Source: a virus
Taxonomy: Duplodnaviria > Heunggongvirae > Uroviricota > Caudoviricetes
Virus record (IMG/VR): IMGVR_UViG_2713897075_000011
Length of the DNA stretch: 7,230 bases
Strand: one strand, 5' to 3'
Positions within the stretch are counted from its first letter, which is position 1; every line of letters begins with the position of its first letter. Below the pieces are notes generated by a model, which was not told the DNA's origin, made no database searches, and saw only the letters and a program-made list of their open reading frames with translations. Below are positions 1-7,230 of this stretch, one piece after another. Position numbers and translations under genes: made by a program.

Positions 1-138
1 GGTGTAAGTGAACTGCAGTTGCCATGTTTTACGGCAGTGAGAGCAGAGATAGCGCTGATGTCCGGCGGTGCTTTTGCCGTTACGCACCACCCCGTCAGTA
101 GCTGAACAGGAGGGACAGCTGATAGAAACAGAAGCCAC
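1..138 (-). CDS. insA: IS1 InsA, first 46 codons only (GTG start at 138; gene runs off the window)
   Basis: Minus-strand frame from GTG at 138-136 translates [46 protein letters not shown], matching the InsA N-terminus as I recall it. Confidence 0.8.
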
Positions 139-193
139 TGGAGCACCTCAAAAACACCATCATACACTAAATCAGTAAGTTGGCAGCATCACC
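1..193 (-). mobile_element. IS1, partial copy; its terminal inverted repeat lies at 171-193 and the element continues beyond the window start
   Basis: Reverse complement of 1-193 reads GGTGATGCTGCCAACTTACTGATTTAGTGTATGATGGTGTTTTTGAGGTGCTCCAGTGGCTTCTGTTTCTATCAGCTGTCC..., which I recognise from memory as the IS1 end (terminal inverted repeat GGTGATGCTGCCAACTTACTGAT) followed by the start of insA. Confidence 0.9.
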
Positions 194-871
194 AAAACAG
201 CATAACATAAACGTGGTAATCGTATTTTCAATTTCAGGCTGCAATCGCTTTAACTCCAGCGCCGGACGATGCTGTCGATTACTGGAAGCAACCGCCCCCG
301 CCATCTCTTGCGCCGGATTGTAATCAATTAACCCGCTTTGCACTGCATAACGCATGATGGCCGTGGTGCGCTGTTGAAGGCGGGAAGCCACTTCAAGACG
401 TCCGGATTTCTCCACGGCCTTAATAGGAATTAACAGATCGCGGGTGCCTAGTTCAGCAATGTTGCGAGCACCAATTGCCGGGAAGATATTGTCCTCCAGG
501 CTCTTTTTTACACGATTAGCATGATCTTCCGACCATTTTTGGTTGGTTACGAGCCACTCTCTGGCAACCTTCTCGAAAGTAATAATCTCTTTCGCCTGCT
601 CTTCTTTCACAGCACGCTTATGTTCACGAGGATCGATACCAGCAGCTACCAGCTTTCTGGCCTCTTCCCTTTTCTTCCGCGCATCCGCCAGCGAAACATC
701 CGGGTAAACACCGAACGCCATCAAATGTTGTTTACCGCCAAAACGGAAACGAAATCGCCAATACTTTGAACCGCCAGGTTTTACAAGTAAGGACATGCCG
801 TCGCCGTCAACAAGTGAATACTCTTTCTCCTCAGGTTTCGCAGAGCGAACTTTAGTATCCGTTAGGGCCAT
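194..871 (-). pseudogene. int: P4-family tyrosine integrase, N-terminal ~226 codons only; 3' part replaced by IS1
   Basis: ORF-track frame 167-949 (minus). Likely true start is the ATG at 871-869, preceded by GGAAGGAAG. Translation MALTDTKVRSAKPEEKEYSLVDGDGMSLLVKPGGSKYWRFRFRFGGKQHLMAFGVYPDVSLADARKKREEARK... is the conserved N-terminal arm-binding/SAM-like region of P4-type integrases. The frame runs straight into the IS1 end at 193 (last residues GDAANLLI are IS1-encoded) and stops at 167. No catalytic domain is present; full-length family members are roughly 400+ aa. Confidence 0.85.
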
Positions 872-897
872 AATGGTCTTCCTTCCATTGGTATCTC

Positions 898-949
898 GTG
901 AGTATACAAGCAATATCGAATCGGCAAATATACTCATTAGTATACTCAC
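898..949. repeat. 10-bp perfect inverted repeat GTGAGTATAC (898-907) / GTATACTCAC (940-949), 32-bp spacer, in the int 5' region
   Basis: Seen directly. TATACTCA also occurs as a direct repeat at 929-936 and 941-948. Position just upstream of the int start suggests an operator or recombinase-binding role; function not shown by sequence. Confidence 0.5.
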
Positions 950-1034
950 AAGCCTGTTGATGTGGGTTGAGTCAGGTTGACTTCAGTTGAGGAGAAAAGC
1001 TGGAAAAGCCTTGTGTGGCGCGGATTTCAGGCAT

Positions 1035-1058
1035 AAAAAAAGACCTCAGTTGAGGTCT
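1035..1058 (-). terminator. Candidate intrinsic terminator read on the minus strand (8-bp-arm palindrome AGACCTCA-gt-TGAGGTCT followed by a U run on the minus strand)
   Basis: Plus strand AAAAAAA-AGACCTCAGTTGAGGTCT at 1035-1058; on the minus strand the stem is followed by UUUUUU. It would insulate int from read-through coming from the alpha/crr side. The plus-strand tail (TATTTACAT) is weak. Confidence 0.45.
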
Positions 1059-1071
1059 ATTTACATACTTT

Positions 1072-1091
1072 TGGTGCGAAGGCCGGACTCA
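1072..1091 (-). other. Candidate att core: ~20 bp resembling the 3' end of a tRNA-Leu (leuX-type) gene, tRNA sense on the minus strand
   Basis: Reverse complement of 1072-1094 is TTTGAGTCCGGCCTTCGCACCA, close to the tRNA-Leu 3' end ...TTCGAGTCCGGCCTTCGGCACCA as I recall it (about 21 of 23 positions). No T-arm or D-arm sequence follows upstream, so this is a core copy, not a tRNA gene. P4-type integrases target the 3' end of tRNA-Leu (established). Confidence 0.55.
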
Positions 1092-1145
1092 AATTACAAC
1101 TTAAAATGTTAAATATAAAGAATTTATTTACCACAACTCATTAAA

Positions 1146-1167
1146 GTGCCCCCATTTGTGCCCCCAT
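1146..1167. repeat. Tandem direct repeat GTGCCCCCAT x2 (12-bp register) beside the att core
   Basis: Seen directly: GTGCCCCCAT at 1146-1155 and 1158-1167. Candidate arm-type protein-binding sites. Confidence 0.5.
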
Positions 1168-1234
1168 CATTTTTTAACCCCTTTCAAACGACAACACATT
1201 GATAAGAAAGATTAATAACTTCAAAACATGATCT

Positions 1235-1267
1235 CCGGTTTGGATCCGTGCTACGGATCCAAACCGG
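1235..1267. repeat. Perfect palindrome with 14-bp arms, CCGGTTTGGATCCG-tgcta-CGGATCCAAACCGG
   Basis: Seen directly. Left arm 1235-1248, loop 1249-1253, right arm 1254-1267. Contains two GGATCC motifs. No flanking U run on either strand, so not a typical terminator. Confidence 0.8.
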
Positions 1268-1307
1268 AAGAATGAAGAACCTAAAAAAAACTTTTTTTAC
1301 GGAAAAC

Positions 1308-1398
1308 TGTTCACACTGTTCACTCGCCATTATTTGTCTTTAATTTCAATGCGATATGCAGTGAACAGTCCGTGAACAGTGAACACTTTACTGTTCAC
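1308..1398. repeat. crr-like iteron cluster: six copies of the heptamer TGTTCAC / GTGAACA in both orientations
   Basis: TGTTCAC at 1308-1314, 1317-1323, 1392-1398; GTGAACA at 1361-1367, 1372-1378, 1379-1385. Preceded by an A8-C-T7 tract (1283-1299). Matches the alpha-binding type I iteron (TGTTCACC-like) of P4 ori/crr as I recall it; position just downstream of alpha is where P4 crr lies. Confidence 0.75.
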
Positions 1399-1415
1399 TT
1401 TCCGGGATTTCAGGT

Positions 1416-1440
1416 AAAAAAAGACCGGCTGATGCCGGTC
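1416..1440 (-). terminator. Rho-independent terminator of the primase-helicase gene
   Basis: On the minus strand, 8 nt after the stop at 1449-1451: stem GACCGGC, loop AUCA, stem GCCGGUC, then UUUUUUU (plus strand AAAAAAA-GACCGGC-TGAT-GCCGGTC). Confidence 0.8.
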
Positions 1441-1448
1441 CGGGTAGG

Positions 1449-3782
1449 TTATGTCGCGGTGGTTTCGTCGCACCGGGGCAGCCAGTCGGCGTTGCTTTCC
1501 TCCCTGAGCGCAAGGTTCGTCTGCATCCCCTGATTTGTTCGCCGCCTGGCGTAATTCAGCCCGTACTCTTTCAGCATCGATGACAGCCCTTTGCCGAACA
1601 TGGTCAGGCTGAGAGTGTTCTTGTAGCCGTGCGCCTCCATGTAAACCAGATAGGCGTGATACAGGTACAGGCGCGGCTGTCGCGGGATGATATTCGCATT
1701 CCCCATGTACATACCGTCAGGCTCGGGCAGCGCCTCCAGATAGCCACAAAAATCGAATGTCGGGTCAGCGTCGCGTTTGATGCTGAGTGCCTCGTCGGAG
1801 TTCTGCTGCGACTGGAGCAGTGTTCGCGCGGTCATCGGGTCGCTGAACGTCTGCATAAGCTGGCGCACGATGACGGCCAGCTCCCGGGCGATTTTATCTT
1901 TCAGCGTCGGGTCACGCTCTTCCGGGGCAATCTGTTCCGGGAAGTGCATTATCACCCGGCGACGTGACACCCCGCCGCTGCGGTCGGTGAAGCGCATCGG
2001 ATTGTTGTTTACGGCCAGTATCACCGCCGGAATATGGGTGGAGTACGCATCGCGGTATTTCGGGTCAACGGAGACCGCATCCCCGCCGGTAATGGCCTTG
2101 AGTCCTGCCCCGTCACCGCTCCATTTTTCCTGGTCAGGCAGACGTATCAGCGAGAAGCCAATCAGCGCCGCGCGTTCGCGGGGGGATTCCAGCGTCTCGA
2201 TGGTGGCCGACGTGGCGTTATCTTCTCCGGCGAGCATGGTCGCAATTTCGGCCAGAATACTTTTCCCGCTGCCACCGGGACCGGTCACTTCGAGGAAGAG
2301 CTGCCAGTCATAACGGTTCGCCAGCACCATAAACAGCGCGGCGAGTATCACATCCCGTTTATCGGCGCGCGAACCGGCAGCGCGGTCGAGCCAGCGCCAG
2401 AAATTCGGCGCGTGCGTCTCCAGCGTTTCCCCCGCCACCGGCGGGGTGAAATCCACGTCGCACAGCGTGCGCAGCCAGTGCGTTTTGCTGTGCGGGCTGA
2501 ATATATTGCTTTTGGTATCAAGCACGCCGTTGCGAAAGCCAATCAGCCGCCGTGCCGGGGCGTCCTGCTGCGGAATAATCAGTTTCAGGGTGTCCACCAC
2601 CGAGGCAATTTTCCCCGATGAGAACGGGGCGCGCAGACGCTGGAACAGCCCGGCCACGTCGCGCGCAAAGTCCGACGGCGGAATGATTTTCCATATTCCC
2701 GCCTCATAGCGGGACAGGAGCTGCCCGTTCGCATCCACCGCCAGCGCTTCGCCGTAATGCTCATGCACCCGCATGGCTTTCTCACTGGTGCTCATGGCGG
2801 TAAATTCCGCCTCGCTCATGGTAGAGAAAGGGCTTTCAGCCGGTGGCCGGATGGCGTCATACATGGCTTTACGCATGGCCTCCCCGCCGTGCTGTGTATA
2901 CGCATCATTCCAGTCACCGAACACCGGCGGCAGGGCGACCACGCCCTCGCAGGACTCTGCGGCCGCAGACGCTTTGGTCTGGCCGTCGCCGTTAAGGTCG
3001 CGGTCGGCGGCAATGACAATCCGACAGGCCGGGAATTTGTGACGGGCAAGGCTCGCCAGAGAAAGGAGGTTCACGGAGGACAGCGCCACCATGACGGTTT
3101 CGCCGGTCAGGTGATGCACGGTGAGCGCGGTCGCGTAGCCCTCCGCTATCCACAGCCGTTTTCCCGCCTCTTTTTTCCCGTCGAGAATATGACACGCCCC
3201 TTTCACCTGACCGCCTTTCAGGGTGCGCTTGAGACCGTCCGCGTTAATGAGCTGGACGTTAACCAGTTCGCCGCTATCGTCATACAGCGGGACAACTAAA
3301 TCACCGGCGCGGTACGTCACACCGCCGGTTTTATGCAGGGTGGTGAGCGTCAGACATTCCCGGCCGGGGAAGCCCTTGCGGGTGAGGTAGGCATTGCCGG
3401 TGGCCGGGCGGGCTTTCTCCATCAGTTTTACGGCCAGCGCGGCGGCGGCTTTGCGGTCGGCCTCCGTTTCAGCCTCTGCGGCCACAGTCACCGCCGGGGA
3501 AACCGGCGGCAGGTTGCCGGTCACGGCGTTCACCTTCCCGGCCGCCTCTGACGGGGTCACGCCGAACACTTTCTCAACCAGTTTCAGACCGTCCCCCGCG
3601 CCGCACTGGTTACAGAACCACGTCCCGCGTCCCTCTTTATCGTCAAAGCGAAAGCGGTCGGAGCCGCCACACACCGGACAGGCCTGATGGCGGTTTTTAA
3701 TCACCTTTACACCCAGCGCCGGGAGAATGCGCGGCCAGTGGCCGCACGCCTGTTTGACGGTGTCCGTTACGTTCATTTTCAT
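1449..3782 (-). CDS. P4 alpha-type bifunctional primase-helicase (replication initiator), 777 aa
   Basis: ORF track. N-terminal zinc-binding motif CPVCGGSDRFRFDDKEGRGTWFCNQCG typical of phage primases; central Walker A TGPGGSGKS; same length as P4 alpha (777 aa, from memory) and N-terminus MKMNVT. SD GAGGGAG lies 9 nt upstream of the ATG at 3782. Iteron clusters flank the gene about 5 kb apart. Confidence 0.93.
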   Translation of the reverse strand: MKMNVTDTVKQACGHWPRILPALGVKVIKNRHQACPVCGGSDRFRFDDKEGRGTWFCNQCGAGDGLKLVEKVFGVTPSEAAGKVNAVTGNLPPVSPAVTVAAEAETEADRKAAAALAVKLMEKARPATGNAYLTRKGFPGRECLTLTTLHKTGGVTYRAGDLVVPLYDDSGELVNVQLINADGLKRTLKGGQVKGACHILDGKKEAGKRLWIAEGYATALTVHHLTGETVMVALSSVNLLSLASLARHKFPACRIVIAADRDLNGDGQTKASAAAESCEGVVALPPVFGDWNDAYTQHGGEAMRKAMYDAIRPPAESPFSTMSEAEFTAMSTSEKAMRVHEHYGEALAVDANGQLLSRYEAGIWKIIPPSDFARDVAGLFQRLRAPFSSGKIASVVDTLKLIIPQQDAPARRLIGFRNGVLDTKSNIFSPHSKTHWLRTLCDVDFTPPVAGETLETHAPNFWRWLDRAAGSRADKRDVILAALFMVLANRYDWQLFLEVTGPGGSGKSILAEIATMLAGEDNATSATIETLESPRERAALIGFSLIRLPDQEKWSGDGAGLKAITGGDAVSVDPKYRDAYSTHIPAVILAVNNNPMRFTDRSGGVSRRRVIMHFPEQIAPEERDPTLKDKIARELAVIVRQLMQTFSDPMTARTLLQSQQNSDEALSIKRDADPTFDFCGYLEALPEPDGMYMGNANIIPRQPRLYLYHAYLVYMEAHGYKNTLSLTMFGKGLSSMLKEYGLNYARRRTNQGMQTNLALREESNADWLPRCDETTAT

Positions 3783-3796
3783 TGTTATTTTCTCCC

Positions 3797-4117
3797 TCAG
3801 TGCAGCGCCGGTGCGGTGATATGACGGGCGCAGAGTTCATCCATCACGGTCAGCCCGAGAAAAGACAGCGACGGCGCGGCCTTGAGTGGTCCGGCTTCCA
3901 TTAAATCTTCGAGCAGGGCACAGGCAATCTGACGGCCTTTTTCCTCGCCGTGCTGGCGCAGGTAGAAGCCCTCCAGCTCGGTCGCAATGGCGCTTTCCAG
4001 CGTACTGAGCGTGAGCTGCGGGTAGCGGTGCTGACGTTCGCACAGGGTCAGCCAGGCACAGGCGACCGCCCGGCGATAGAGCGCAGCGCGCAGAACGGGA
4101 GATAATGCGGTTTTCAT
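3797..4117 (-). CDS. Hypothetical protein, 106 aa ([16 protein letters not shown]...), directly upstream of the primase gene
   Basis: Internal start of ORF-track frame 3797-4306. ATG at 4117-4115 is preceded by GGGAGGG and overlaps the stop of the upstream gene as ATGA (translational coupling). The N-terminal extension of the track ORF has no SD. Stop is 12 nt before the primase SD/start region. No family recognised. Confidence 0.6.
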
Positions 4118-4374
4118 ACACTGCCCTCCCCGGTCAGCCAGCGCTGATTGCAGCGGTCGACCACACCATCGAGCCGGGCAGTCATGAGGTAAATCACCGA
4201 GGTGAGCTGTAGCGGCTGCGCCGGATTGTGGCGCAAAGAGGTGCAGTCCTGCACCTGCATCAGGTCGCCGACAAGCTGGCCGACATTGCGAAGATGTTCG
4301 AGACATTCAAGGTCTGCCCGGCTGATGGTGGGCTGGTTTATATTCTGTGGCCGTTCCGTACTGTTAACAGGCAT
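4114..4374 (-). CDS. Hypothetical protein, 86 aa ([28 protein letters not shown]...)
   Basis: ORF-track frame 4114-4419. Preferred start is the ATG at 4374-4372, preceded by AGGAGA with a 7-nt spacer; the upstream ATG at 4419 lacks an SD. The stop overlaps the next start (ATGA). No family recognised. Confidence 0.6.
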
Positions 4375-4393
4375 TATTTCGTCTCCTGAGGAC

Positions 4394-4419
4394 GTGCGTA
4401 TCCCTGCGCAGATACGCAC
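4394..4419. promoter_or_regulatory. Inverted repeat GTGCGTATC-N8-GATACGCAC (9-bp arms) in the 70-bp gap between the 149-aa and 86-aa genes
   Basis: Seen directly. On the plus strand it is followed by ATTTTATTTTT (terminator-like for plus-strand or antisense transcripts). On the minus strand it sits just 5' of the SD of the 86-aa gene with no U tail (possible operator or processing/stability hairpin). Confidence 0.45.
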
Positions 4420-4445
4420 ATTTTATTTTTGGGTGTCGTTTTTAA

Positions 4446-4895
4446 TTACAGATAATGGCGGTAGCTGTTATCCGGTTTTATTTCCGTTTCCGGCCTGAAA
4501 TTATTCCGCCATTTATGCGCCACCGGCGCCGGACGTTTAACCGGGGGAATATCATCAGGATAGTTATCGATATTCCGCGCCCGGTATTGCTGTAATGCCG
4601 GGTCGGCCGCTATTTCGCGTAATACGACGTGGCGGTTTTCAGGGTTACGTTTAAATACATCGGGATGCTCACAGGTAAAGTCCCGCAAAAAACGGCCGAG
4701 CGGAATCTCTGCCATGCGGCCACCGGCAATAATACGAATGAGGATGGTGTAGGTGCGCCGGTACGGGTTCCAGACCAGCCCCGGACAGCGGTACGGCATA
4801 TCCCACGGAATACCGTCGGCCAGCACGCCCGACACCACCACGTCAGGAAATCCTGTACAGCGATATATTTCACCCGGCTGAGGGAAATCAAACAT
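4446..4895 (-). CDS. Hypothetical protein, 149 aa ([39 protein letters not shown]...)
   Basis: ORF-track frame 4446-4937. Preferred start ATG at 4895-4893, preceded by GGAGGGGAG; it overlaps the stop of the upstream 99-aa gene (ATGTTTGA). No family recognised. Sits where P4 has orf151 (from memory, by position only). Confidence 0.65.
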   Translation of the reverse strand: MFDFPQPGEIYRCTGFPDVVVSGVLADGIPWDMPYRCPGLVWNPYRRTYTILIRIIAGGRMAEIPLGRFLRDFTCEHPDVFKRNPENRHVVLREIAADPALQQYRARNIDNYPDDIPPVKRPAPVAHKWRNNFRPETEIKPDNSYRHYL

Positions 4896-5187
4896 GGTGC
4901 TCCCCTCCGTTTCCTGACGTCGTGGCGAGAAAGTCACGGCACAGACCTTTGGCTTTTAGCTCTTCCAGGACGTAGCTGACGTCCTCATGGATATAACTAA
5001 AAATCTGCGGCAGGTATAGCTGGTGTAAACCGTTCAGTTCACGGCGCAGCAAATCTCCACCGATGAACTGCGAGACGGCGCTGGCGCGATTGAGTTTATG
5101 GTACGCCTCTATGCTGAGGTGTTCCTGCATGGGGTTAAGGTCATCACGACGCGCTGAGACGGTCTGAGGGGTGTTTTTATTAGGCAT
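4888..5187 (-). CDS. Hypothetical protein, 99 aa ([32 protein letters not shown]...)
   Basis: Internal start of ORF-track frame 4888-5433. ATG at 5187-5185 preceded by GAGGT with a 5-nt spacer; the start overlaps the last codons of the 65-aa gene (ATGCCTAA). The upstream part of the track ORF lies in the non-coding leader. No family recognised. Confidence 0.6.
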
Positions 5188-5377
5188 GTGATACCTCAAC
5201 AACCGGCAGACGGGCGGCAAGGGAAAGCACGTATTCCCGGACAAGGGTGCGGCGGGCGGCCAGCTCGTCACCGGCCACGGTGCGGAGCATACAGATACGG
5301 GGTTTACGGTCTGCGCGACGGACGGCGGCAAACACAAAGACAAACTGCGGGTGTGACGGGGTGAGGGTCGTAGCCAT
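5180..5377 (-). CDS. Hypothetical small basic protein, 65 aa ([65 protein letters not shown]); first cistron after the leader
   Basis: ATG at 5377-5375 preceded by a strong SD AAGGAGG with an 8-nt spacer. It is the 3' third of ORF-track frame 5180-5779, whose upstream 134 codons are W/C/R-rich, span a terminator and overlap the regulator gene, so only the nested 65-codon gene is called. Sits where P4 has kil (by position only). Confidence 0.55.
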
Positions 5378-5434
5378 AGGGGCAACCTCCTTGAAGTAGC
5401 GGTTATTGCCACCACCGGAGTTCCTACACTCATG

Positions 5435-5513
5435 GGTGGTAGCCCGGACGGGGGTAGGAATACCGGCCTTCAAGGAAACCGGCCAGCCCGAGGGCTGCCC
5501 CGCCCGGACCACC
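5435..5513 (-). ncRNA. Candidate structured regulatory RNA (~79 nt, GC-rich three-way fold) in the leader; possible P4 CI-like immunity RNA
   Basis: Minus-strand sequence GGUGGUCCGGGCGGGGCAGCCCUCGGGCUGGCCGGUUUCCUUGAAGGCCGGUAUUCCUACCCCCGUCCGGGCUACCACC. The ends pair (GGUGGU/ACCACC and CCGGGCGGGG/CCCCGUCCGG with one G-U), enclosing two hairpins (CAGCC..GGCUG and GGCCGG..GGCCGG). Boxes CCUUGAAGG and UUCCUAC are complementary to motifs found twice nearby. Folding was done by eye only. Confidence 0.35.
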
Positions 5514-5580
5514 ATTATCTGATACAGGCCAGTGTGAAACCACCACAGACCAAAAATAAGGTGTGCCTGAGCAACGACGT

Positions 5581-5603
5581 AAAAAAAGACGCATGGCGCG
5601 TCT
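5581..5603 (-). terminator. Candidate intrinsic terminator in the leader downstream of the AlpA/Vis-like gene
   Basis: On the minus strand: stem AGACGC, loop GCCAU, stem GCGUCU, then UUUUUU (plus strand AAAAAAA-GACGC-ATGGC-GCGTCT). The stem is short (6 bp). Confidence 0.5.
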
Positions 5604-5730
5604 GGTGTCGCCTTGAAGTAACACGGGTTCCTACGCCCGGCTGTCGATTTTGCGACAGCGACAAAACTGTACCAGGAAACACACAACGGATGCAAGCCAG
5701 AAAAAGGGACTTTGTGAGAATGGCTCTGAT

Positions 5731-5997
5731 TCATGCGTCGTATTTCCGGTTGCGGTGCGCGACACGTTCTGCCATCCACGCCGTGATTTCAGACTGTAGC
5801 CAGGCGACATTTTTACCCCCTAGGGAAACCTGCGCCGGGAAAGCATTGCGGGCAATTAAATCGTAGAGCGTGGAACGGGACAGGCCGCACTGATGAATGA
5901 CTTCCGGGAGACGTAAAAAACGTTCCTGAGCCGGGGCTGAAACCGGCATCGGGTGCGTGCCAGTGGAGGAAGATGGTACTGATGAAACTGTGTGCAT
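5731..5997 (-). CDS. alpA: AlpA/Vis-family phage transcriptional regulator / excision accessory protein, 88 aa
   Basis: ORF track. Translation contains the AlpA-type helix-turn-helix [52 protein letters not shown] at 5997 is preceded by GAGGT with a 6-nt spacer. Same size and position as P4 vis (first gene of the leftward late transcript), from memory. Confidence 0.85.
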
Positions 5998-5999
5998 AA

Positions 6000-6056
6000 C
6001 GCTACCTCGTTAATATCCGCAGAGATCCGGACGTGTCCGTCCGGTATCAGGTAGCG
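6000..6056 (-). promoter_or_regulatory. Nested inverted repeats immediately upstream of the AlpA/Vis-like gene and overlapping its SD
   Basis: Outer arms CGCTACCT (6000-6007, includes the complement of the SD) and AGGTAGCG (6049-6056); inner hairpin CCGGACG-tgtc-CGTCCGG (6027-6044). Could sequester the SD in the mRNA or act as an operator. Confidence 0.45.
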
Positions 6057-6099
6057 CTCTATTTTGTGAATATTTTTTCTCAATGCAACAGGGGGAAAT

Positions 6100-6117
6100 T
6101 GTACAAAGCACGGGACA
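6100..6117 (-). promoter_or_regulatory. TGT-N12-ACA dyad upstream of the AlpA/Vis-like gene; candidate helper-activated late promoter (PLL-like)
   Basis: TGT at 6100-6102 and ACA at 6115-6117 with exactly 12 bp between. This dyad is the Ogr/Delta activator site centred near -55 in P2/P4 late promoters (established). The dyad centre is ~111 bp upstream of the ATG at 5997. Confidence 0.4.
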
Positions 6118-6149
6118 ACGGGTGCTGTTTTTTTACTCAAGACCATTTA

Positions 6150-6180
6150 AAGGCACTGGAAGGAGTTATAAGGCACTGGA
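6150..6180. repeat. 11-bp direct repeat AAGGCACTGGA x2 with 20-bp period
   Basis: Seen directly at 6150-6160 and 6170-6180, between the divergent promoters and the ori iterons. Confidence 0.5.
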
Positions 6181-6276
6181 GATTTCAAAAGTGAAATGCA
6201 AATTGATTTAATCACCATAAGAGCATGAATTAATAGGATATACCGCATAAAATTTACATTCGGGATGTTCAGACCA

Positions 6277-6378
6277 GTGAACAGTAGTGAACAGTTGGTG
6301 AACACTTCTTTCTCAACTGTTCACTCTTTAATTTATTGTTTTACTTATATTTTTATACTGAGTGAACAGTAGTGAATA
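6277..6378. repeat. ori-like iteron cluster with an AT-rich unwinding stretch
   Basis: GTGAACA at 6277-6283, 6287-6293, 6298-6304, 6362-6368; TGTTCAC at 6318-6324; degenerate GTGAATA at 6372-6378. AT-rich stretch 6325-6360 lies between the copies. Same heptamer as the cluster at 1308-1398, about 5 kb away, as for P4 ori and crr (about 4.5 kb apart, from memory). Confidence 0.75.
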
Positions 6379-6456
6379 GTTATTAGTAAAAAAACAAACA
6401 GAGTGAGGGGTTTACCTGCGACCTTTCTCTGGCCAGCCGGGTTTTTAAGTCCTGTT

Positions 6457-6474
6457 TGTGCCACGTCTGCTACA
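6457..6474 (+). promoter_or_regulatory. TGT-N12-ACA dyad upstream of the plus-strand gene; candidate helper-activated late promoter (Psid-like)
   Basis: TGT at 6457-6459 and ACA at 6472-6474 with 12 bp between. Dyad centre is ~83 bp upstream of the ATG at 6549, compatible with a -55 activator site and a short leader. Confidence 0.4.
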
Positions 6475-6548
6475 ACGGCAATGAATCGAGTTGTTGTCTG
6501 AGGGACGGCAGAATGGCGTCAGGTTGAAAACACAGAGAGAACCCGACG

Positions 6549-7230
6549 ATGAAACCAGATTTGTTTACCGCAGTAATGAAAACCATCGGCAGCACGCAGG
6601 ATGAGAACATCCGCACGGCCATTGACAGCGCACTGGATACCCTTAACGAGAAAGCAAACCAGAACGCAGAGGCCACGATAAATAACGCGCTTGAGGCATT
6701 CAGCAAGGCCAAATCCGCGCACACGGAAAACATGCTGAAACTGAATGATATTGATGCGGCTATTACCCGCAGCGAGAAAGAGCGTCAGAACGCCCTGAAT
6801 GAAAGTGCCGAAGCCGAACAGAACTGGCGTACCCGTTTTCGCGAACTGCGCGGCATGATGACCCCGGAACTGAAAGCCGAACACAGTCAGCGAGTGGCCG
6901 GTCGGGAGCTGGCGGAGGAATTCACCGCCCTGATTGATGAACTCAACGATGATAAGGCCAGTACCATGCTGTCCGCCTGTACATCAGGAGATAAGTACGT
7001 CGGCACGCATTTTACGGTGTTCTCTGCCTACTCCCGGAATGAGTGGGCGACCGTGATGAAAGACATCCCTCCCTCACTGGTGCGCGCATTTGCGTTACGT
7101 CTGCGTGAACTCGAAATGAAGGGGGAAGAACACCCTCACAACATTCTCATTCAGGAACTGGGGGAGAATGTACTGGCGCAAAGCAGGTATTACACATTCA
7201 ACATGGCGCAGGTGTCAACGACGGATGAAA
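6549..7230 (+). CDS. 5' portion (227 codons, no stop within window) of the first gene of the rightward operon; Sid-like by position only
   Basis: Not in the ORF track because it runs off the window. My translation from ATG 6549: MKPDLFTAVMKTIGSTQDENIRTAIDSALDTLNEKANQNAEATINNALEAFSKAKSAHTENMLKLNDIDAAITRSEKERQNALNESAEAEQNWRTRFRELRGMM... continuous to the window end. Composition is strongly helical (A/E/K/L-rich). Divergent from the AlpA/Vis-like gene across ori, as sid is in P4; P4 Sid is about 244 aa (from memory). Weak SD. Confidence 0.6.
   Translation, partial: MKPDLFTAVMKTIGSTQDENIRTAIDSALDTLNEKANQNAEATINNALEAFSKAKSAHTENMLKLNDIDAAITRSEKERQNALNESAEAEQNWRTRFRELRGMMTPELKAEHSQRVAGRELAEEFTALIDELNDDKASTMLSACTSGDKYVGTHFTVFSAYSRNEWATVMKDIPPSLVRAFALRLRELEMKGEEHPHNILIQELGENVLAQSRYYTFNMAQVSTTDE

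Follow-up and report, generated by a model that had tools for sequence, protein, structure and literature searches.

A P4-family integrase remnant between IS1 and a P4-like satellite at leuX of Escherichia coli: probable relic of an older, IS1-eroded defense island

Introduction

The 7,230-bp stretch of DNA analyzed here (the window) carries the 5′ part of a P4-family tyrosine integrase gene (int′) lodged between the end of an IS1 element and a P4-like satellite. Comparison with complete Escherichia coli genomes points strongly (probability about 0.9) to a history in which int′ marks the decayed end of an old island, its integrase broken beforehand, that was later shortened by an IS1-associated deletion and was joined at the tRNA gene leuX by the separate integration of a P4-like satellite.

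The leuX gene is a known hotspot for islands in E. coli (PMC11537424). The core components of P4-like satellites are int, psu, delta, sid, alpA, epsilon, and alpha, and neighboring elements with an integrase of their own, as well as decayed tandem elements, occur (Moura de Sousa and Rocha, 2021; PMC8628076). IS1, P4-family integrase pseudogenes, leuX islands, and decayed or tandem P4-like satellites are all known kinds of sequence, the RefSeq relatives already annotate both the IS1 and the integrase pseudogene, and the finding is one of ordinary mobile-element decay; searches of the literature returned no description of the locus as such or of the core deletion described below. An IS1 beside an integrase pseudogene is routine in genome decay and of little consequence in itself; the lesson of the locus is for annotation practice: an integrase found next to the alpha gene and att core of a P4-like satellite can belong to a neighboring, older island in tandem, and an open reading frame (ORF) that runs into the end of an insertion sequence is no proof that the insertion sequence made the break. 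The locus also documents the IS1-linked loss of a BREX-1/AbiE defense island in a lineage of enterotoxigenic E. coli (ETEC).

Materials and Methods

Window positions 1–1300 are present at ≥99.8% identity in 14 complete chromosomes, mostly of the ETEC O6:H16 type, and the context outside the window was reconstructed from these 14. The one that was compared across the whole window is that of E. coli F5656C1 (NZ_CP024260, 2322159–2329388), which differs from it by 2 mismatches in 7,230 bases. All genome counts were taken over 5,426 complete E. coli genomes.

Results

Tandem Layout at leuX

Gene order in NZ_CP024260 runs from fim through nanC-nanM to brxA and the first 29 codons of brxB (brxB′), then IS1, int′, the att core, and alpha, and continues to sid, IS100, delta-psu, and a truncated P4-type int that adjoins leuX; read from the tRNA gene, the order in the relatives is leuX, P4-type int, (psu, delta), IS100, a sid-like gene and so on to alpha, core, int′, IS1, brxB′, and brxA. 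The satellite (window 1091–7230) thus stands in tandem at tRNA-Leu (leuX). Its distal arm (1091–1448) contains two P4-type arm repeats (GTGCCCCCAT, twice, at 1146–1167), a crr-like unit (1306–1398), and the alpha terminator (~1415–1442), and its far end is marked by the gene for the alpha primase-helicase (1449–3782, minus strand; 777 aa), which has 80% DNA identity to P4 alpha. With the P4-like satellites (PMC8628076) it shares, within the window, alpha, an ORF106 homologue, an ORF of the epsilon region, an Icd-like/cI region with a C4-type RNA, an AlpA/Vis-like helix-turn-helix protein, and a Sid-like gene; psu, delta, and the truncated int are seen only in the complete-genome relatives.

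The satellite has a P4-type int of its own, located at its other end beside leuX, outside the window and about 10 kb away. Compared with P4 Int, the product of this leuX-proximal gene shows 97% identity over 212 aa (P4 Int residues 5–216), and satellite DNA as a whole is ~80% identical to that of P4; at the DNA level int′ hardly resembles P4 int at all, and its product reaches 50% identity with P4 Int over 216 aa. The TGCCCCCA arm repeats of P4 occur in the window only to the right of the core (at 1147 and 1159), with their partners beside the leuX-proximal int. In EC21Z-137, L73, NT1F31, and O111 11128, int′ lies directly downstream of leuX, the position from which the satellite has displaced it in the window. 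By these comparisons int′ is a leftover of the leuX BREX/AbiE island and not the Int of the window's P4-like element. The adjacency of int, att, and alpha mimics circular P4 but is the junction of two tandem elements. The original prediction, which spoke of an otherwise complete recombination module, had in effect merged the two: the core and its arms come from two elements, and the integrase from the older island. Its statement that the element cannot recombine by its own Int survives in part, in that int′, lacking the catalytic domain, is incapable of recombination, but int′ is not the satellite's Int; the P4-like element may indeed be unable to excise, through a different gene and for a different reason.

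From the observed anatomy, the junctions shared among genomes, the missing 17.7 kb, the absent target duplication, and the tandem layout, we infer an order of events and a manner of deletion by IS1. An old defense island (BREX-1, PLD, AbiE) with a P4-family int would have sat at leuX. The 3′ half of this int would have been replaced or deleted, giving a break at codon 209 that was joined to AT-rich foreign DNA and widely inherited. In one lineage, an IS1-associated deletion of ~17.7 kb would then have extended from 52 bp past the old break to codon 29 of brxB, either because a single IS1 end deleted the DNA next to it or because two IS1 copies recombined, and would have left a single IS1 without a target duplication, abutting the tail of int′ at 193/194. 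A P4-like satellite would have integrated site-specifically into the 3′ end of leuX by means of its own Int, pushing the old island away from the tRNA gene and creating a hybrid junction at 1072–1090, with the old-island arm on its left and the satellite arm on its right. The satellite would subsequently have decayed, in the relatives through IS100 and through a deletion from the cos region into int.

The same anatomy could be reached in another order, which we regard as unlikely though by no means negligible: the satellite entered the BREX-bearing island first, the IS1 deletion came later, and strains EC21Z-137 and CT29 then lost the satellite through excision. The intermediate that this order calls for exists in ATCC 43896, which has the satellite in tandem with an intact BREX island in an undecayed array of leuX, full-length satellite int, cII-like gene, beta, gop, cos, psu, delta, and sid through to alpha, followed by the core, truncated int′, the gene for a 220-aa hypothetical protein (hyp220), AbiE, PLD, and complete BREX-1. 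EC21Z-137 and CT29 share the identical IS1/int′ and IS1/brxB′ junctions and carry no satellite, int′ lying directly at an intact leuX. Loss of the satellite from EC21Z-137 sits poorly with its leuX core, which is intact (20 bp), the displaced core of the window being short of one C, so that simple excision would have needed a crossover outside that position; this order also needs one step more than an IS1 deletion followed by integration.

The Integrase Fragment and Its Break

The integrase part of the locus occupies 246–871 on the minus strand and corresponds to codons 1–209, that is, to the arm-binding and core-binding domains only of a P4-family tyrosine integrase; it is a pseudogene remnant of the resident leuX island. 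It is read as part of a chimeric ORF of 234 codons (167–871, minus strand), composed of 209 integrase codons, 17 codons of a tail, and 8 codons of IS1. The ORF starts with the ATG at 869–871 (minus strand; MALTDTKVRSAKP...), reaches position 194 after 226 codons, and extends for 8 codons (GDAANLLI) inside IS1 to a stop at 167–169. The frame is therefore unbroken into the IS1 terminal repeat at 193/194, as had been noted. A Pfam search of the ORF returned Arm-DNA-bind_3 (PF13356) at residues 3–87 (E = 1.6e-29) and Phage_int_M (PF22022) at residues 99–193 (E = 1e-28), which bears out the assignment to the P4 family. The catalytic Phage_integrase domain (PF00589), with the catalytic tyrosine, was not found in the ORF by Pfam, in agreement with the earlier statement that it is missing; in full-length proteins it spans residues 223–384 (P0016) and 227–388 (P4 Int).

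P4 Int (X51522, CAA35897) and the P4-family integrases of tRNA-gene islands resemble int′ in having the PF13356 and PF22022 domains and in adjoining the tRNA gene, int′ lying downstream of leuX in satellite-free strains. Unlike P4 Int, int′ stops at codon 209 and so lacks PF00589, and the repeats of its arm are not the TGCCCCCA repeats of P4. To judge from its domain content, int′ is a fragment of a gene and no functional member of the family.

The end of the homology does not coincide with IS1. A DNA alignment with the int of O157, which keeps 261 codons and whose homology to the window begins at 246, and a protein alignment with relatives of 370–396 aa both place it at codon 209, or window 245/246. 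In the protein alignment identity extends through ...HRPALELKR (residue 209), with the end of homology at residues 209–213; past residue 209 the relatives continue PELLxKIDGYTGRPLTR... and the window continues QPEIENTITTFMLCCF. The 52-bp tail (194–245) is AT-rich non-integrase sequence, GC content falling from 50% in int to 33%, and in relatives free of the IS1 it leads on into hyp220. From DNA alignments, GC content, and its being common to 164 genomes, codons 210–226 (window 194–245) are unrelated AT-rich DNA, the start of foreign DNA that replaced the 3′ half of int. The alignment of the 226 aa with full-length relatives, proposed as a way to locate the break, puts it at residue 209.

Proteins of Salmonella, Citrobacter, and E. 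fergusonii, at 80–86% identity, are the nearest full-length relatives of int′. To place the break, an E. coli orthologue both intact and near-identical was sought, and none was present among the top protein hits. The E. coli and Klebsiella relatives that are at least 90% identical to int′ are all truncated, at varied points, and RefSeq relatives label the gene "incomplete; missing C-terminus."

The 245/246 junction between truncated int′ and the tail is found in 164 of the 5,426 complete genomes. IS1 abuts the tail at 193/194 in only 16 genomes, and 148 of the 164 with the 245/246 junction lack IS1 there. O111:H- 11128, L73, and ATCC 43896 have int′ and the identical 52-bp tail with no IS1 at that position, and in IS1-free relatives the tail is followed by hyp220, AbiE, PLD, and complete BREX-1. 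Relatives free of this IS1 show the truncation at codon 209 as well, so that the cut in the integrase is not the work of IS1. The catalytic half had been lost by an older replacement or deletion, before IS1 arrived, and the 226-codon "IS1-cut integrase" is a chance read-through of 209 integrase and 17 tail codons. The original prediction, that IS1 had cut the gene after ~226 codons in a relatively recent inactivation, is contradicted on both counts: homology stops at 209 with the same tail in IS1-free genomes, and the truncation at codon 209 is common to diverse lineages.

Two integrase genes at this locus are broken at nearly the same place. The break in int′ (residue 209/210, window ~245) and that in the satellite int (residue 212, position 26294 of relative L001) lie no more than ~3 aligned residues apart, at the border that precedes the catalytic domain, in two unrelated integrase genes; a Salmonella int-RadC chimera (P0060) has its break there too, after the homologous ALELNRI. 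These coinciding breaks could reflect a hotspot or coincidence.

IS1 and the Lost BREX Island

Window 1–193 holds the left end of IS1 in reverse complement, with the terminal inverted repeat GGTGATGCTGCCAACTTACTGAT at 171–193 and the 5′ part of insA at 1–138 (minus strand), which encodes the first 46 aa of InsA (residues 1–46); the remainder of the element, which is 768 bp long, falls outside the window, upstream. The segment matches the annotated 768-bp IS1 of NZ_CP024260 at 192 of 193 positions, so that its identification as IS1 is upheld. Matches to IS1 were found in 5,179 of the 5,426 genomes. The inverted repeats of ~23 bp (GGTGATGCTGCCAACTTACTGAT and GGTAATGACTCCAACTTATTGAT) enclose 15426–16193 (768 bp) in L001, and the full insA-insB′ gene in L001 and in EC21Z-137 is annotated "IS1 family transposase; programmed frameshift." The copy resembles the IS1 family in its terminal inverted repeats, its InsA N-terminus and, in the relatives, its 768-bp length and its insAB′ with programmed frameshift. 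It differs in having no 8–9 bp target duplication, since it stands at a 17.7-kb deletion and is not a simple insertion.

The other end of IS1 in the relatives abuts brxB codon 29, in a truncated BREX gene. The 9-bp flanks of the element, cggctccgg and aaaacagca, form no target duplication; the same scan detected the positive controls, a 9-bp duplication (tggcctggc) around another IS1 in EC21Z-137 and an 8-bp duplication (caaaattg) around an IS1A of MY203L1 (L009) that inserted independently 25 bp away. The 3′ part of int was not found beyond the far IS1 end in the relatives. Extension upstream, proposed as a way to find the rest of int and a target duplication beyond the element, led in the relatives to brxB′ without either. 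IS1 promotes adjacent deletions, and the missing duplication fits a deletion derivative and is no argument against the identity of the element as IS1.

Relative to O111:H- 11128, 17,702 bp are absent from the window lineage, with IS1 in their place. The lost segment comprises hyp220, a fragment of an integrative and conjugative element, abiEii/abiEi, an IS3 remnant, a PLD gene, brxL, pglZ, pglX, brxC, and most of brxB, so that only brxA and 29 codons of brxB are retained beyond IS1; the full brxA-brxB-brxC-pglX-pglZ-brxL set (BREX type 1) is present in O111 11128 and ATCC 43896. The old island has in common with other E. coli leuX islands a P4-family int beside leuX and a cargo of BREX-1, AbiE, PLD, and a PT-dependent restriction endonuclease; it differs from them in that only its two ends survive here, around a single IS1.

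That the window's P4-like element carried an intact int into which IS1 recently transposed, with the 3′ half of int beyond the other IS1 end, is very improbable. The ORF does run in frame into the IS1 terminal repeat, and the circular form of P4 has int next to alpha, separated by nothing but att (PMC8628076). Against this stand the end of integrase homology at codon 209 and the 148 of 164 junction genomes without IS1 at 193/194, the far flank of brxB′ with no target duplication, the P4-type int that the satellite owns beside leuX, and a left arm that lacks P4-type arm repeats.

IS1 is found at ≥4 positions within ~0.8 kb of int′ across strains (relatives L003, L004, and L009 among them), and its far sides are brxB′, fimE′, fimD′, or, in a simple insertion, an 8-bp duplication. 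In NT1F31 an IS1 of the same orientation stands at window 240/241 with fimD′ on its far side; in L73 an IS1 of the same orientation stands 768 bp further out with fimE′ on its far side. That the IS1 of L73 stands 768 bp from the int′ tail, a spacing equal to the length of IS1, was taken as coincidence, because the segment is unique DNA for the 220-aa hypothetical protein, which has no Pfam match. IS1 has repeatedly eroded the leuX-fim interval, type 1 fimbrial genes included, and the varied end-points fit IS1-associated deletions, either of the adjacent type or of the type that arises when two IS1 copies recombine.

The Displaced att Core

Between int′ and the satellite lie the upstream region of int′ (872–1071), which forms the old-island arm, and a displaced att core (1072–1090, minus strand; TGGTGC-GAAGGCCGGACTC), which reads TGGTGCGAAGGCCGGACTC in the window and matches 19 of 20 bases of the P4 attP core and leuX 3′ end, one C being missing between 1077 and 1078. 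The old-island arm contains (C)TCRTKAGTATAC repeats at 895–907, 933–945, and 940–952 and the leuX terminator hairpin at 1037–1062; no P4-type TGCCCCCA arm repeats were found in 872–1071, and sequence identical to this region abuts intact leuX in EC21Z-137 and L73. The core was considered as part of a tRNA gene and rejected as such, a tRNA scan of the window having found none. In likeness to P4 attP and a prophage attR, the junction has 19 of 20 core bases and, on the right, arm repeats, crr iterons, and the alpha terminator in the order of P4; it differs from P4 attP in the absent C and in a left arm from another element. As regards a functional attP or attR, the core does not reach 20/20, and the arm repeats of one integrase do not lie on both sides. 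Taken together, 1072–1090 is a hybrid junction of the tandem array (the attR of the satellite), and neither attP nor tRNA. The intact-looking att core that had been placed 200 bp from the start of int does lie 200 bp from the ATG, but it is one C short and is such a junction.

Hardly credible at all is the notion that the window represents a P4-like plasmid or phage genome that has not integrated and is in attP form, with int, attP, and alpha naturally contiguous: the order of int, core, crr, and alpha is that of P4 nt 2607–6969, but window 1–1300 lies between fim/nan and leuX in the 14 complete chromosomes, satellite-free strains have the identical sequence of the left arm downstream of leuX, int′ shows merely 50% identity to P4 Int next to ~80% DNA identity in the rest of the satellite, and the core is one base short.

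The same single-C deletion was present in all four int′-type leuX tandem arrays inspected at the sequence level (window 1072–1090; L005, 5826–5845; L009, 2473–2492; L010, 15061–15080). The upstream elements of these arrays are of three types, namely two sorts of P4-like satellite and a cbtA/yeeU-type island. In 4/4 copies of int′ directly at a functional leuX the core was intact. The deletion was considered as the mark of a single int′ haplotype, a view rejected because the int′ copies that adjoin it represent at least three SNP backgrounds. It was also considered as an obligatory product of tandem integration, and this too was rejected, strain 100117 having an intact 20-bp distal core (L011, ~13033–13052) that adjoins a full-length resident integrase. 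Among the best 30 junctions with a P4-type satellite arm, 25 are of the shortened and five of the intact length. A recurrent deletion of the C (e.g., at the Int cleavage site), or one that is selected, may lock newly integrated satellites and islands in place, which would then decay in situ; this is a tentative and rather doubtful idea, which would fit the IS100 insertion in the satellite and its deletion starting within 3 nt of the cos cut site.

Decay and Minor Features of the Satellite

In the relatives the satellite differs from the P4-like satellites in its IS100 insertion and in being without cos, gop, beta, cII, and the 3′ half of int. At L001 26143–26303 the satellite int is fused to the right end of P4: the sequence follows P4 as far as nt 11621, at a distance of 3 nt from the cos cut, and resumes at nt 3280. 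The cos 19-mer is lacking, and the deletion, which ends at int codon ~216, removes cos, gop, beta, cII, and the 3′ half of int. An end at the terminase cut site suggests cleavage of cos in situ, followed by repair.

IS100 (istA/istB; L001 23236–25300) is inserted in the relatives after the sid-like gene of the satellite. The window begins in IS1 and ends a few bases short of this IS100, and thus resembles a stretch delimited by two repeated insertion sequences.

Two RNA families gave Rfam hits that exceed the gathering threshold, both inside the satellite's Icd-like/cI region: C4 antisense RNA (the P1/P7 C4 immunity RNA family; 84.5 bits; 5432–5519, minus strand) and isrK (74.2 bits; 5582–5659, minus strand). 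The distal arm has a single crr-like unit with TGTTCAC iterons (1306–1398), compared with two 120-bp crr repeats in P4, and a perfect 16-bp palindrome at 1234–1268 is conserved with P4.
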